A DNA stretch of 6,554 nucleotides. Origin: a virus (Duplodnaviria > Heunggongvirae > Uroviricota > Caudoviricetes). The stretch's first letter is position 1, and the number at the start of each line of letters is the position of its first letter. Where the stretch lies: the IMG/VR virus record IMGVR_UViG_2695420685_000018. One strand, given 5' to 3'. The notes under the pieces are model-generated. The model ran no database searches, was not told where the DNA came from, and saw only the letters and a program-made list of their open reading frames with translations. Position numbers and translations under genes: made by a program. Positions 2,361-5,960 of this stretch are shown in pieces.

Positions 2361-2488
2361 CCGCCAACGACTTTCGCGTGCAGGCATTAAAAATTTTGCA
2401 GTTCCATGCCTAGTTGAAACCTCGATTTCTATAACATCCAATTTTGTAAATTTAGATATAGCTCAACTTTTCCCAATGTTTTCAAGTG

Positions 2489-2494
2489 TATAAA
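2489..2494 (+). promoter_or_regulatory. Candidate sigma70 -10 element (TATAAA) for the plus-strand 355-aa gene; no convincing -35
   Basis: Seen in sequence: TATAAA about 60 nt upstream of the ATG at 2556 in an AT-rich tract. The gene is antisense to the phage late operon and so needs its own promoter somewhere in 2400-2555. Weak call. Confidence 0.25.
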
Positions 2495-2544
2495 AACAAT
2501 TGGCGTTACGCCATAACACTATACTTAGGATAAGTAAAGATTTT

Positions 2545-2550
2545 AAGGAG
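2545..2550 (+). promoter_or_regulatory. Shine-Dalgarno AAGGAG for the 355-aa gene
   Basis: Seen in sequence: aaggag at 2545-2550, 5 nt upstream of the ATG at 2556. Confidence 0.7.
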
Positions 2551-2555
2551 TTTTA

Positions 2556-3623
2556 ATGAGTCAACATCAATATTATCCACAGCTGAAATGGAAGCCTGCT
2601 GAATATGAATCTCTGATGCTTTTAGATCAAACTACGCTCTCTGGTTTTACTCCGATCATTACCATTCCAGACATAGACTGGGATTATGAAAACGAATGCT
2701 ACAAGAAGAGTTTGAGTTCTTACTTATCTGACTTCGGTATTAACCTTGCGGCATCCTGGAAAGCCAATCGTCCTGTTTTGCTGGATGTTAAATATTTAGA
2801 TAAACATGGTTCGAGCCGCCATCATCCTCTAGATATGTGTATCCAAGATGCTAGAGTAAATGGTAAGGAAATTATCCCTGTTGTTTCTCCCGCATATTCA
2901 ACAAACTATATACATGCTGTTCAACGCAACTTAATCAATGGGCTCGCTATATCTATCACCCCCCAGACATGGCACCAATTCACAAGTCTGGTTAACCACT
3001 TAAATATTCATCCTAGTTTAATTGATGTAATCATTGATTTTGGAGATATTCAAAACGCAACTGATAGTTTAAAACAACAAGCATTAAGCATGGTCAACAC
3101 ATTATCAGGCCAAGCTCCGTGGAGAAACTTGATTTTATCTTCAACCGCATACCCGGCATCACAGGCAGGGATACCGCAACATCAAGTTCATCATATTCCG
3201 CGCCATGAATACGATCTTTGGATGTACGTAGTACAGAATTTTAGCAATGGAAGAACGCCAAGTTTTAGTGATTATCCCACCGCTAGCTCTACCATTACGA
3301 GCGTAGACCCACGCTTCATGTCTCAGTATGTCTCAGTGAGATATTCGAACGATACCTCATGGATCTTTGTAAAAGGTACCGCAGTTAAAGGAAATGGATG
3401 GGGCCAAACTAAAAACTTATGTACTACCCTTGTTAGTTCGCCAGAGTATCAAGTCTTTGGCTCCAAATTTAGTTGGGGGGATGATTACATTTACCAAAGA
3501 TCATTAGGCGCTAACAAATCTGGCGGCTCTAAAGAATGGCGTAAAGTTGCACATACGCACCATATTACGTTAGTCGTGAGACAGCTTTATTGGTTGGCGC
3601 AGACTCAGCCTGCCAAGCCTTAA
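2556..3623 (+). CDS. Hypothetical protein, 355 aa, no confident family assignment; first gene of the cos-proximal AT-rich insert
   Basis: ORF track 2556..3623 (+). ATG preceded by a strong SD, long ORF in a low-GC segment, no predicted transmembrane stretch or signal peptide by eye. Unverified impression only: resembles proteins annotated as 'beta family' or 'sce7725-like'. Requires a profile search. Confidence 0.8.
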   Translation: MSQHQYYPQLKWKPAEYESLMLLDQTTLSGFTPIITIPDIDWDYENECYKKSLSSYLSDFGINLAASWKANRPVLLDVKYLDKHGSSRHHPLDMCIQDARVNGKEIIPVVSPAYSTNYIHAVQRNLINGLAISITPQTWHQFTSLVNHLNIHPSLIDVIIDFGDIQNATDSLKQQALSMVNTLSGQAPWRNLILSSTAYPASQAGIPQHQVHHIPRHEYDLWMYVVQNFSNGRTPSFSDYPTASSTITSVDPRFMSQYVSVRYSNDTSWIFVKGTAVKGNGWGQTKNLCTTLVSSPEYQVFGSKFSWGDDYIYQRSLGANKSGGSKEWRKVAHTHHITLVVRQLYWLAQTQPAKP

Positions 3624-4185
3624 CTTTCCAGCCTACGCGTTTCTTTAAGGCTGTTCTGACTTCAGGCCTGAGATTCGCTATTGGAATATTTTCCGCAATA
3701 ATATTCCATAACTCAAATCGGGGCTTGCTTTTGATTCCTTTGGAATAGCCCCATCGTTCAAGTACGTCGATACATTCATCTTTCCAAAGCAATTGAGCGA
3801 GCATCAATGTGTCATGGTTTCGATTAAGCTTTTCTCCACGCATGTGCTTTATAAGAATGGCGCCTTTTGGCCCAACAGAAACCGTTTTAACGCCCCACCA
3901 ACCTGGGATTAACTTTAATGCTCCCTCAAGGTGTTTCTCAGCTACGACAAGAGTAACCTTGTCCATTACAGAAGAATAATGCTTGATTTGAAGAGGCAAA
4001 CGCTCCAAAGAGTCATATTCACTTTTGAGCTCGTACCCGTGTATAACACCATTTATTACAGCAATGTCTGCTCTACTGGCGCCAAGGGATATGGAAAATT
4101 CATCGACCACAAGGCAGTCTGGATCTAAATGCGATTCTTTCAAAAGCTTATGATGCACCGCGAACCTAACATCTTGATCTTTCAT
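3565..4185 (-). CDS. Hypothetical protein, 206 aa, with an N-terminal PD-(D/E)xK-like nuclease motif (putative nuclease); second gene of the insert
   Basis: ORF track 3565..4185 (-). ATG at 4185-4183 preceded by AAGGAG. Residues ...VVDEF(28-30)...RADIAV(38-43)...GYELKS(50-55) fit the hydrophobic-strand-D / hydrophobic-strand-E-x-K arrangement of PD-(D/E)xK nucleases (inference from motif spacing). Unverified impression: resembles 'sce7726-like' or MmcB-like proteins. Confidence 0.75.
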   Translation of the reverse strand: MKDQDVRFAVHHKLLKESHLDPDCLVVDEFSISLGASRADIAVINGVIHGYELKSEYDSLERLPLQIKHYSSVMDKVTLVVAEKHLEGALKLIPGWWGVKTVSVGPKGAILIKHMRGEKLNRNHDTLMLAQLLWKDECIDVLERWGYSKGIKSKPRFELWNIIAENIPIANLRPEVRTALKKRVGWKVKAWQAESAPTNKAVSRLT

Positions 4186-4190
4186 GACTT

Positions 4191-4196
4191 CTCCTT
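4191..4196 (-). promoter_or_regulatory. Shine-Dalgarno AAGGAG for the 206-aa gene
   Basis: Seen in sequence: plus ctcctt at 4191-4196 is AAGGAG on the minus strand, 5 nt upstream of the ATG at 4185. Confidence 0.7.
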
Positions 4197-4213
4197 ACTC
4201 CCTCCGTTATTGA

Positions 4214-4219
4214 ATTATA
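4214..4219 (-). promoter_or_regulatory. Candidate sigma70 -10 hexamer (TATAAT, perfect consensus) for the 206-aa gene
   Basis: Seen in sequence: plus attata at 4214-4219 is TATAAT on the minus strand, about 29 nt upstream of the ATG. The -35 position is occupied by a tandem direct repeat rather than a TTGACA-like hexamer. Confidence 0.45.
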
Positions 4220-4222
4220 GCG

Positions 4223-4242
4223 CACTGCATTTTACTGCATTT
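4223..4242. repeat. Tandem 10-bp direct repeat (cactgcattt / tactgcattt) overlapping the -35 region of the 206-aa gene promoter; candidate operator
   Basis: Seen in sequence: 4223-4232 cactgcattt and 4233-4242 tactgcattt, 9 of 10 identical, head to tail, immediately upstream of the TATAAT element on the minus strand. Confidence 0.6.
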
Positions 4243-4535
4243 GAGAGATTTGACCACTTCAATCACAAAATGCTTATCTGCAGCAACAAGATTCATAGCC
4301 ATACGACTATGGTGATTACCTTTTGTCTGGAAAACTGACCATTCCACGAAGATCAGATAGGTCTATAGAATCTTGGTTTGTCATAGCGTTCGTCTTACTT
4401 TGAGATGAACCTTTGCTGCATAGGAGATCAGCCCGTCAAGGCTCACCAGCACTAACTGACTACTCAAAGGCTCATTCCAAAGGGTTTGGTTCGACGTGGT
4501 TGAGTGCGCTGCGGTGCGCGGTGAAATACCTGTAC

Positions 4536-4566
4536 AAAAATGCCCCGCATCTGCGAGGCATTTTCC
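4536..4566 (-). terminator. Intrinsic terminator-like hairpin downstream of Rz, with some bidirectional potential
   Basis: Seen in sequence: plus aaaaaTGCCCCGCATCTGCGAGGCAtttt. On the minus-strand RNA this is a 7-bp GC-rich stem (GCCUCGC/GCGGGGC, one G-U pair), 4-nt loop, followed by AUUUUU. It lies about 40 nt past the Rz stop. On the plus strand the stem carries a C-A mismatch and a shorter U tract. Confidence 0.55.
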
Positions 4567-4601
4567 TGAAAGTCACGTATTAAATTTCAGTGAAATTAAA
4601 A

Positions 4602-5060
4602 TTATTTTAAGCACTGCGTCCTGATGTACTCCTGCAGGTAGTTGACCTGAGCGGTTATCTTGTCGATTCCACTTCGGAGACGGTAATAATTGAGTTCAGC
4701 ATCTGCTGTAAGTCTTGGGCTTTCTCCATCGCCCATGCTGCTGGCTCCGGTCGTTGACTTTGCACAGGTGGCGGCGACTTGCAGGCGCTTACGCCCAGCA
4801 GAAACATCAGCACGAAGACTTTCGATAGTCGCGTTAGCATCAGCAAGCTCCTTTGTGTATCTGGCGTCGAGTTCTGCTACATCACGCTGACGCATCTGCA
4901 TGTCAGTAATTACCACGTTCGCCAGCTTCAGTTCTCTGGCATTTTTGTCGCGCTGGGCTTTGTAGGTAATGGCGTTATCGCGGTAATGATTAACAGCCCA
5001 TGACAGGCAGACGATGGTGCAGATAACCAGAGTATAAATAATCGCTGCGACTCTGCTCAC
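4602..5060 (-). CDS. Rz: Rz, inner-membrane spanin subunit (lambda Rz-like)
   Basis: ORF track 4602..5075 (-). From the GTG at 5060 the product [48 protein letters not shown]... is near-identical to lambda Rz ([48 protein letters not shown]...) from memory. The GTG start overlaps the endolysin TGA stop (GTGA). The upstream in-frame codon at 5075 is TTG and has no lambda counterpart. Confidence 0.88.
4655..4840 (-). CDS. Rz1: Rz1, outer-membrane lipoprotein spanin subunit, embedded in the +1 frame of Rz
   Basis: ORF track 4655..4846 (-). From the ATG at 4840: [36 protein letters not shown]..., i.e. a signal peptide with lipobox V-S-A-C followed by a Pro-rich segment, entirely inside Rz in another frame. 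This is the defining Rz1 architecture (established knowledge). Confidence 0.85.
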
Positions 5061-5590
5061 TGATCTATCCCCCAACAGGCTAATGCGCTTTCCTGGTCAC
5101 GACGAATAACCTGTCCATAGCAGTTATTTGAACGTATGCGGCAATCGCGCCCACCATCTTTTATCCACCAGCGAATCGCCTCGCATGCGCCCTTACGATC
5201 ACCGGCATTCAGCCGCTTATAAAACGTCGACGGGAAACACTTACCGGGGCCAATGTTATAGGGACAGAATGACGCTATACCCGCTTTCTGTGGTTCGGTC
5301 AGTGGTACTTTAATATTGCGCTCCACCCATGCCAGCGCCTTATCACGTTCAATAGCGTTAACCTGGTCGCATTTTTCCTTCGACAGCTTCATTCCCGGTA
5401 TGACGGGCTTACCATCCACCATTGTGGCACCACGACAGATGGTCCATATACCGGAACCATCGCGGTATGCCGTAGTGTGGTTACCCTCTTTTTCATCCAG
5501 AAACTGGTCAAGTATTTGAGGAGCAGACGCGCCTGCAGCAATCAGCGCCAGAACAGCAGCTGACAGGCCGTATTTGATTTTTGCGCTCAT
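5057..5590 (-). CDS. R: SAR endolysin (T4-lysozyme-type muramidase, phage 21 R / DLP12 RrrD-like), 177 aa
   Basis: ORF track 5057..5590 (-). N-terminal Gly/Ala-rich weakly hydrophobic segment [16 protein letters not shown] (signal-arrest-release type) followed by the catalytic spacing E35-x8-D44-x5-T50 ([16 protein letters not shown]), as in P21 R and T4 lysozyme E11/D20/T26 (established knowledge). Confidence 0.9.
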
Positions 5591-5645: not shown

Positions 5646-5960
5646 CTAACAACCCGTAATCGAGTTATCAGAACTGTTAATTTTTATGGTATACCGCGCC
5701 TCTGAACAGGGGCGCGTTTCTGGCAACAGCTCGTCCCCTTCACATAACCCGGCAGCAACATCCATGAAGACCTGTCTGATGCTCCTTCTGGCTGCTGCCT
5801 CATAAAACTCCAGCGCGGCACCTTCAACACGGTCCAGCGAGATGTCCAGGTCAAAAATTTCACCGTCAAAGCGTTTTTTGTCCCGTAACGCTAAAGTTAC
5901 CGTAACTTTATTCTCAAAATTGCGGATCCCTTTCACAATCAGTTCATAGTTTTGAGTCAT
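5646..5960 (-). CDS. Small hydrophilic protein of unknown function, 104 aa, YdfR-like (DUF1327-type) gene between holin and endolysin
   Basis: ORF track 5646..5960 (-). ATG 4 nt after the holin stop with a GGGGAGAG SD-like tract. No transmembrane segment. Position and size match YdfR of the E. coli K-12 Qin prophage, which sits between essQ and rrrQ (recalled, not searched). Confidence 0.7.
   Translation of the reverse strand: MTQNYELIVKGIRNFENKVTVTLALRDKKRFDGEIFDLDISLDRVEGAALEFYEAAARRSIRQVFMDVAAGLCEGDELLPETRPCSEARYTIKINSSDNSITGC

Follow-up and report, generated by a model that had tools for sequence, protein, structure and literature searches.

A convergent beta/sce7726 gene pair in the cos-proximal slot of a lambda-like Escherichia coli prophage is likely a two-gene variant of the gop-beta-cII defence family

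A stretch of 6,554 nucleotides from the virus record IMGVR_UViG_2695420685_000018 (hereafter the window) contains the late region of a lambda-like Escherichia coli prophage, and between its lysis cassette and cos it carries an insert of approximately 2 kb with two convergent genes. To judge from its sequence, this insert is likely a minimal variant of the known defence family gop-beta-cII, with two of the three genes of that family and lacking the toxin gene. The gene on the plus strand (2556–3623) encodes a protein of 355 amino acids of the Beta_protein family (PF14350), with a predicted triose-phosphate isomerase (TIM) barrel; the gene on the minus strand (3565–4185) encodes a protein of 206 amino acids of the sce7726/P4-cII family, with a PD-(D/E)xK nuclease fold, a helical C-terminal domain and a disordered tail (residues 192–206). 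Both genes had been correctly delimited, with their strands and product lengths, in an initial annotation of this DNA, which had also considered the insert a candidate undescribed defence or exclusion module, neither product matching a characterised system. Defence or exclusion is still the best reading, although the module is not an undescribed one because both proteins belong to named families with homologues in gop-beta-cII and, for beta, also in PD-lambda-2. To the extent that the literature could be searched, what stays undescribed is the two-gene form without a toxin gene: no study of this form or of its mechanism was found in the literature on sce7726, PF14350, the names Beta_protein, beta family and sce7725, gop-beta-cII, or pairs of a TIM-barrel protein and a nuclease. 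To our knowledge, no study of how gop-beta-cII or PD-lambda-2 work is available either.

The family assignments come from profile models and from direct comparison with P4. The beta protein of the window matches Pfam Beta_protein over its full length (E = 8e-56), the PADLOC PD-Lambda-2_C models (E = 4e-32 and 2e-25, mainly residues 132–349) and the PADLOC 'beta' model (E = 3.5e-10), and it shares 22% identity with P4 beta by BLASTP (E = 3e-7). The 206-amino-acid protein matches the NCBIfam model sce7726_fam (NF033832, E = 2e-54) and the PADLOC 'cll' model (E = 4e-31), and it is 27% identical to P4 cII (BLASTP, E = 3e-19). In fact, the names 'beta family protein' and 'sce7726 family protein' had already been given to the two products in RefSeq. 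The P4 homologues are two of the three gop-beta-cII genes, and beta belongs to the family of PD-lambda-2 gene C. An assignment of beta to the NCBIfam sce7725 family was rejected, as the beta proteins of P4, Rac-SA53, Sorangium and Aneurinibacillus and that of the window match no NCBIfam model. The two systems to which these homologues belong have been studied by experiment. The gop-beta-cII locus protects E. coli against lambda and P1, and gop is toxic without beta (PMC9122126); the system can be triggered by orf184, a phage accessory gene located beside ral, which causes cell death through gop-beta-cII (bioRxiv 10.1101/2023.04.06.535777). PD-lambda-2 is composed of a HigB-like gene A, a gene B coding for an Xre helix-turn-helix (HTH)/M78-peptidase protein and a beta-family gene C (Vassallo et al., 2022), and the beta homologue is required for its defence (PMC9519451).

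Predicted structures and conserved residues are in accordance with these assignments. The AlphaFold2 models are confident, with predicted local distance difference test values of 92 (beta) and 90 (sce7726 protein). The sce7726 protein is modelled with a restriction-endonuclease-like alpha/beta core fold; E29, R38, D40, E52, K54 and Q66 do not vary among 41 homologues, one of them P4 cII, and the PD-(D/E)xK active site (E/D/ExK motif) looks intact; the nuclease-like motif noticed earlier in the smaller protein is thus borne out by the conservation of E29, D40, E52 and K54 and by the predicted fold. The beta protein is modelled as a (beta/alpha)8 TIM barrel. Across 50 diverse beta proteins, including that of P4, residues Y6, P33, D77, D161, P200, D239, W328 and H336 are invariant, and E16, H56, R133, R216, E218, Y240, R262, Y263 and D309 are among those that are nearly so; D161 is inside a predicted strand, and D77 and D239 are each where such a strand ends. 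This pattern of residues suggests catalysis or ligand binding, and beta is perhaps an enzyme because some of its Asp and His residues are invariant. Specific enzyme identities (DpdA, PLD/GDPD, the alpha subunit of tryptophan synthase) were rejected, since all fold matches score like generic TIM barrels, and sequence and profile searches of the PDB gave no solved relative of either beta or the sce7726 protein.

The association between the two genes extends far beyond E. coli. A motif scan for sce7726, with one genome per species, gave 80 loci from Enterobacterales, Vibrionaceae, alpha- and beta-proteobacteria, Myxococcota, Firmicutes, candidate phyla radiation bacteria, Acidobacteriota, Chloroflexota and others. 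In 77 of them beta is found immediately downstream of sce7726; of the three others, two lie at the end of a contig. Every one of the 77 pairs is convergent, the 3′ ends overlap in 76 of them (median 50 nt), and the relative reading frame of the overlap is identical in 75; even between the ends of the homologous domains there is a median overlap of 17 nt. When the survey was started from beta instead, in viral and metagenome contigs, every locus with enough sequence had a convergent sce7726 gene, so the co-occurrence of the two genes, on which the initial annotation had asked for a survey, is borne out from both sides. Most of the 77 pair loci have no third gene. Because the two genes co-occur in this fixed geometry and mostly without a third one, the conserved core would seem to be the beta/sce7726 pair, to which gop and the HigB/Xre-peptidase genes were probably added, in the smaller part of the loci, upstream of beta. 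The latter kind of addition is seen in 13 of the 77 loci, where a gene for an Xre-HTH/M78-peptidase protein (approximately 400 amino acids; PADLOC PD-Lambda-2_B, E = 7e-140) lies directly upstream of beta and is usually preceded by an open reading frame (ORF) of approximately 93 amino acids with a HigB-like look. The layout of these 13 loci comprises four genes: the HigB-like ORF, the Xre-HTH/M78 peptidase gene and beta, facing a convergent sce7726 gene. A convergent sce7726 gene, omitted from the published definition, is therefore often found opposite operons of the PD-lambda-2 type. As to the PD-lambda-2 locus of E. coli, homologues of gene B were searched for, and no E. coli entry was among the 120 matches listed.

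The insert of the window carries neither kind of addition. No plus-strand ORF of at least 40 amino acids exists between cos and beta; in the cassette, tblastn of P4 gop gave no match of any meaning, the best one (E = 0.19) lying across the start of beta; and no gop was found among the small ORFs of both intergenic regions, those in 4186–4601 being unremarkable. HigB-like and Xre-peptidase genes are absent both from the cassette, which has two ORFs only, and from the 20-kb annotated region of an identical prophage. Without gop and without HigB/Xre-peptidase genes, the locus falls outside the three-gene definitions of both gop-beta-cII and PD-lambda-2.

The position and composition of the insert support, at the level of sequence, its description as a horizontally acquired, mobile cargo of approximately 2 kb in a variable cos-proximal slot. 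Likeness to prophages with alternative cargo ends at 2363–2370 on the cos side, and on the other side homology begins at 4381, where 4381–4600 is 86.6–87.1% identical to the Rz(15)–rha junction of P22/BTP1; the cassette consequently extends over approximately 2371–4380, between cos and a truncated rha beside Rz. The segment 4381–4600 is flank and not cargo: it is a minus-strand remnant of the Rz–rha intergenic region with approximately the first 24 rha codons, and includes a hairpin after Rz at approximately 4535–4565, so the cassette would have replaced most of an rha gene. The insert had initially been delimited as 2400–4535; a cassette is indeed present there, and only its boundaries have been displaced. 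Likewise, the fall in GC content is real (41.3% over 2400–4535, close to the estimate of about 40%; chi-square p = 7e-12), although the flanks have 50.9% (left) and 50.0% (right) instead of the mid-50s first proposed; GC at third codon positions is 0.37–0.41 in the insert versus 0.49–0.53 in the flanks. The recognition of this place as the cos-proximal moron slot was right: prophages with near-identical Nu1/TerL carry iss with a TonB-like gene, DUF6979, ynfO with DUF1398, Rha, or PerC in the same slot (iss being presumably a gene for a bor-type lipoprotein). The insert thus has the features of a lambdoid moron, namely discrete cargo with its own signals and a deviating GC content in the variable slot between Rz and cos. 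The whole insert is present in 126 of 5426 complete E. coli genomes (about 2%), nearly always with at least 99% identity, while 1412 of the 5426 match at least part of the query, which consisted of the cassette with approximately 200 bp of flank per side; both ORFs are intact and 99–100% conserved in about 120 genomes.

The remaining features of the window are those of a lambda-like late region read on the minus strand, as seen from its ORFs and from the RefSeq annotation of an identical prophage. They comprise genes for the holin (6258–5965), the lysozyme (5590–5057) and Rz with an embedded Rz1 (5075–4602), and, beyond the cassette, Nu1 (2148–1597) followed by the start of the large terminase gene. 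Between the holin and lysozyme genes lies a gene of the YdfR family (5646–5960, minus strand, 104 amino acids). The element AGGTCGCCGCCC at 2321–2332 (lambda GGGCGGCGACCT on the minus strand), which we take to be cosN by comparison with lambda cos, is approximately 40 bp from the boundary of the cargo. A scan with Rfam gave no RNA family anywhere in the window.

The mobility of the cassette is also apparent from its different partners. An identical cassette (99–100% at the protein level) is joined to Nu1 variants of 30, 39, 52, 66, 83 and 100% identity and stands beside two lysozyme types (34–100% identity), from which it follows that lambdoid phages exchange it as a mosaic unit; in lambdoid phages whose packaging modules differ, it moves together with the end of the lysis module. 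In an enterobacterial phage, a version of approximately 77% identity sits between an unrelated endolysin/holin pair and unrelated TerS/TerL, and the DNA similarity to copies of approximately 75–77% identity in unrelated phages is confined to 2432/2536–4270/4291. The pair has been found in more distant phages as well. In the Gordonia phages DumpsterDude and Powerball and in the Mycolicibacterium phage Mycofy1 it is convergent with overlapping ends, and in DumpsterDude and Mycofy1 it lies behind the lysis cassette. In Rac-SA53, it is in the nin region, between the replication genes and Q. Altogether, there are five phage contexts in which sce7726 points the same way as the phage operon before it and beta the opposite way, and in four of these the pair comes directly after the lysis cassette. 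The sce7726-family ORFs of DumpsterDude (4501–5115 of the examined stretch) and Mycofy1 (3001–3597) are not annotated in the deposited records, the former of which lists a small opposite-strand ORF in that place; both are 41–44% identical to the protein of the window over nearly its full length. The Powerball homologue is annotated as 'exonuclease'.

Each gene of the cassette has its own putative expression signals. The strong AAGGAG ribosome-binding sites described earlier are present 5 nt before each ATG, at 2545–2550 (plus strand) for beta, where AAGGA is invariant in the upstream alignment, and at 4191–4196 (minus strand) for sce7726. Promoter-like elements, as proposed, are present before sce7726: a consensus scan detected on the minus strand (4214–4256) a block composed of TGGTCA (4256–4251), a spacer of 16 nt and TAAAAT (4234–4229), followed by TATAAT (4219–4214), and its positions are invariant across six versions that are approximately 75% identical overall. 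Within this block, a tandem AATGCAGT repeat (4241–4234 and 4231–4224, minus strand, 10-nt spacing), invariant in six diverged versions, could be an operator of sce7726. For beta, the candidate promoter is only a conserved AT-rich block on the plus strand at 2452–2494 (TTAGATATAGCTCAACTTTT ... TATAAA at 2489–2494), identified by the six-version alignment. A perfect GC-rich hairpin, TGGCGTAACGCCA at 2501–2513, lies in the putative beta leader approximately 43 nt before the ATG, and is not conserved in the versions of approximately 75% identity. E. coli CUVET17-972 carries an IS2 element (approximately 450–1790 of the examined stretch) some 107 bp before the beta start, at the equivalent of window position 2449 and at the edge of the conserved upstream block; this insertion was rejected as a natural knockout because, from its place before beta, it leaves both genes intact. 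At their 3′ ends the two genes overlap in antisense by 59 nt (3565–3623), the C-terminal helix of beta being encoded opposite the disordered tail of sce7726. A scan 3′ of both stop codons showed no terminator-like site, and each transcript should therefore run into the other gene. The nearest neighbour genes are more than 100 nt away in close enterobacterial relatives, where the pair stands alone, and a ratio of nonsynonymous to synonymous substitution rates (dN/dS) of 0.04–0.06 for both genes, against versions of approximately 77% identity, denotes strong purifying selection.

Taken as a whole, we propose, with a probability of roughly 0.55, that the pair is a lysogen-protecting abortive-infection or exclusion module in which the nuclease is the effector and the TIM-barrel beta protein the controller. 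The pair would protect the lysogen from other phages, in the way that the three-gene relatives protect against lambda and P1. Given the absence of gop or of a HigB-type toxin, the nuclease would be the component that cuts phage or host DNA, and beta might act as a controller or sensor that keeps it silent until a phage cue is perceived. Convergent transcription without terminators may couple the expression of both genes. In this prophage, Q-antiterminated late transcription, as known from lambda, would cross the cassette on the minus strand as far as Nu1, reading sce7726 in sense and beta in antisense.

Several observations weigh against this proposal. Protection against lambda and P1 from the native promoter has been shown for the P4-type three-gene locus only; the share of cII in that defence has not been separated, and the known toxin is gop (PMC9122126). 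The PD-lambda-2 clone ends 396 bp past gene C, so that any sce7726 gene there would be truncated, yet defence was seen; the nuclease may therefore be dispensable in beta-type systems. The acidic residues that never vary in beta favour catalysis over a simple antitoxin role, and its candidate promoter is weak by consensus, since the upstream block has no canonical −35 element and failed the sigma-70 consensus scan. The linkage between the two genes is not absolute: in Xenorhabdus koppenhoeferi (4435–5567 of the examined stretch) a sce7726 gene without beta lies directly after an Rz homologue, and the Myxococcus phage Mx4 (p30) and the Bacillus phage Edson have more distant sce7726-like genes without beta inside co-directional phage operons. 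Finally, the surroundings of the chromosomal loci, made up for the most part of mobile-element genes and dotted with defence genes (MzaA, dCTPase, dGTPase, type I and III restriction-modification, DitA, UG29 reverse transcriptase), count in favour of the proposal, but the apparent enrichment of defence genes there is modest.

A possible, although tentative, alternative starts from the same conserved core. The TIM-barrel enzyme and the PD-(D/E)xK nuclease would be an ancient and self-sufficient two-component immune module, whose frame-locked 3′ overlap would regulate the balance between sensor and effector, either by transcriptional interference or by mutual antisense control, with gop and the HigB/Xre-peptidase genes as lineage-specific add-ons. 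If this were true, both named systems would have to be defined anew, with an overlooked core at their centre, and a fourth gene would have gone unrecognised in PD-lambda-2 loci.

An unlikely explanation is that of selfish addiction, in which the nuclease would be a toxin and beta its antidote, and post-segregational killing would stabilise the cassette or the prophage without any anti-phage defence. It is consistent with the very tight linkage of the genes, whose frame-locked overlap is hard to separate, with their presence on mobile elements, with the neutralisation of a toxic partner by P4 beta (PMC9122126) and with the description of related systems as toxin-antitoxin-like (PMC9122126; PMC9519451). 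However, classical type II pairs consist of smaller proteins, the convergent layout is not a co-transcribed operon, and both experimentally tested relatives defend against phages; besides, addiction and defence are compatible with each other. We are equally doubtful about a role in the life cycle of the carrier phage, either as a late nuclease for the degradation of host DNA or the processing of phage DNA, or as a regulator of lysogeny, with beta restraining it in the lysogen. The orientation of the pair in the five independent phage contexts, directly post-lysis in four, would fit such a role, as would read-through in a lambda-type late operon, which by lambda biology would express sce7726 late. 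The same can be said of the names 'cII' and 'regulatory protein' on some homologues and of the more distant sce7726-like genes found without beta in lytic-phage operons. Against it, the cargo of the slot is interchangeable and non-essential, the cassette being present in only those 126 of 5426 E. coli genomes; most of the 80 loci are on bacterial genome contigs with neighbours that often are not phage genes; and the P4 genes are non-essential (PMC9122126).

It is rather improbable that the pair follows a logic similar to that of restriction-modification, in which the TIM-barrel enzyme would mark self (DNA or the nucleotide pool) and the nuclease would attack unmarked incoming DNA. The weakest explanation, an inert remnant of a three-gene system that lost its toxin, may recall that the described systems have three genes, that gop is absent here and that the truncated neighbouring rha denotes a past rearrangement at the site, but it is highly improbable and is contradicted by conservation and selection, as both ORFs are intact in the approximately 120 genomes with the low dN/dS given above, catalytic residues and upstream regulatory blocks are conserved, and only 13 of 77 loci have a PD-lambda-2B-like peptidase gene as a recurrent co-directional partner directly before beta.

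These observations are of significance for the way in which both named systems are understood and detected. Their shared and deeply conserved unit appears to be beta with cII/sce7726, and not the toxins that are behind the toxin-antitoxin label. The two-gene form, which occurs in many phyla and in actinobacteriophages, would escape detection rules that require the three named genes together; the rules of PADLOC and DefenseFinder are presumably of this kind. If the pair defends alone, it would offer a simpler system for finding what the TIM-barrel beta protein senses or catalyses and a rare case in which phyla share a conserved overlap of convergent genes; if it does not, the toxins would be the true effectors and beta and cII accessory. 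The conserved, frame-locked overlap and the overlooked link with PD-lambda-2 are the points of most interest to specialists.

The closest known system is gop-beta-cII of P4 (gop_beta_cll and Rst_gop_beta_cll in what we take to be the nomenclature of PADLOC and DefenseFinder). Both loci have a beta homologue of identical length (355 amino acids, PF14350) convergent with a cII/sce7726 homologue, and both are non-essential cargo beside the cos site of a temperate element. The gene order of P4 is gop (plus strand), beta (plus strand) and cII (minus strand), gop being a membrane toxin of 133 amino acids co-transcribed with beta that has no counterpart here. The locus of the window differs further in the low identity of the two shared proteins (only 22% for beta and 27% for cII), in the length of its cII-type protein (206 amino acids versus 264 in P4, whose C-terminal extension is absent here), in the 59-nt 3′ overlap in place of a 27-nt gap with an annotated terminator, and in its location in a lambdoid prophage instead of a P4-like satellite. 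PD-lambda-2 is similar in that the beta protein of the window matches the PD-Lambda-2_C models (E = 4e-32) better than the P4 'beta' model, and in that the 13 of 77 loci with a PD-Lambda-2_B-type gene before beta have sce7726 convergent with beta; it is different in its genes A and B, absent here, and in its published three-gene definition without sce7726, for which the published clone was probably too short. With regard to type II toxin-antitoxin systems, the genes described here are convergent and form no operon, and their products (355 and 206 amino acids) are large. Immune PD-(D/E)xK nucleases such as Can2/Card1, Cap4 and type II restriction enzymes, together with the MmcB-like/SPO1766 family, provide a broader comparison: sce7726 has no CARF or SAVED sensor domain and no sequence-level relation to any solved protein, and its partner is a TIM-barrel protein and not a cyclase or a methylase. 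Finally, the morons bor of lambda and iss of E. coli share with this pair the slot between the lysis cassette and cos, in which the pair is exchangeable with iss in sibling prophages, and bor is transcribed against the late operon as beta is here; their product is a serum-resistance lipoprotein, whereas the cargo of the window is a nuclease with a TIM-barrel partner.

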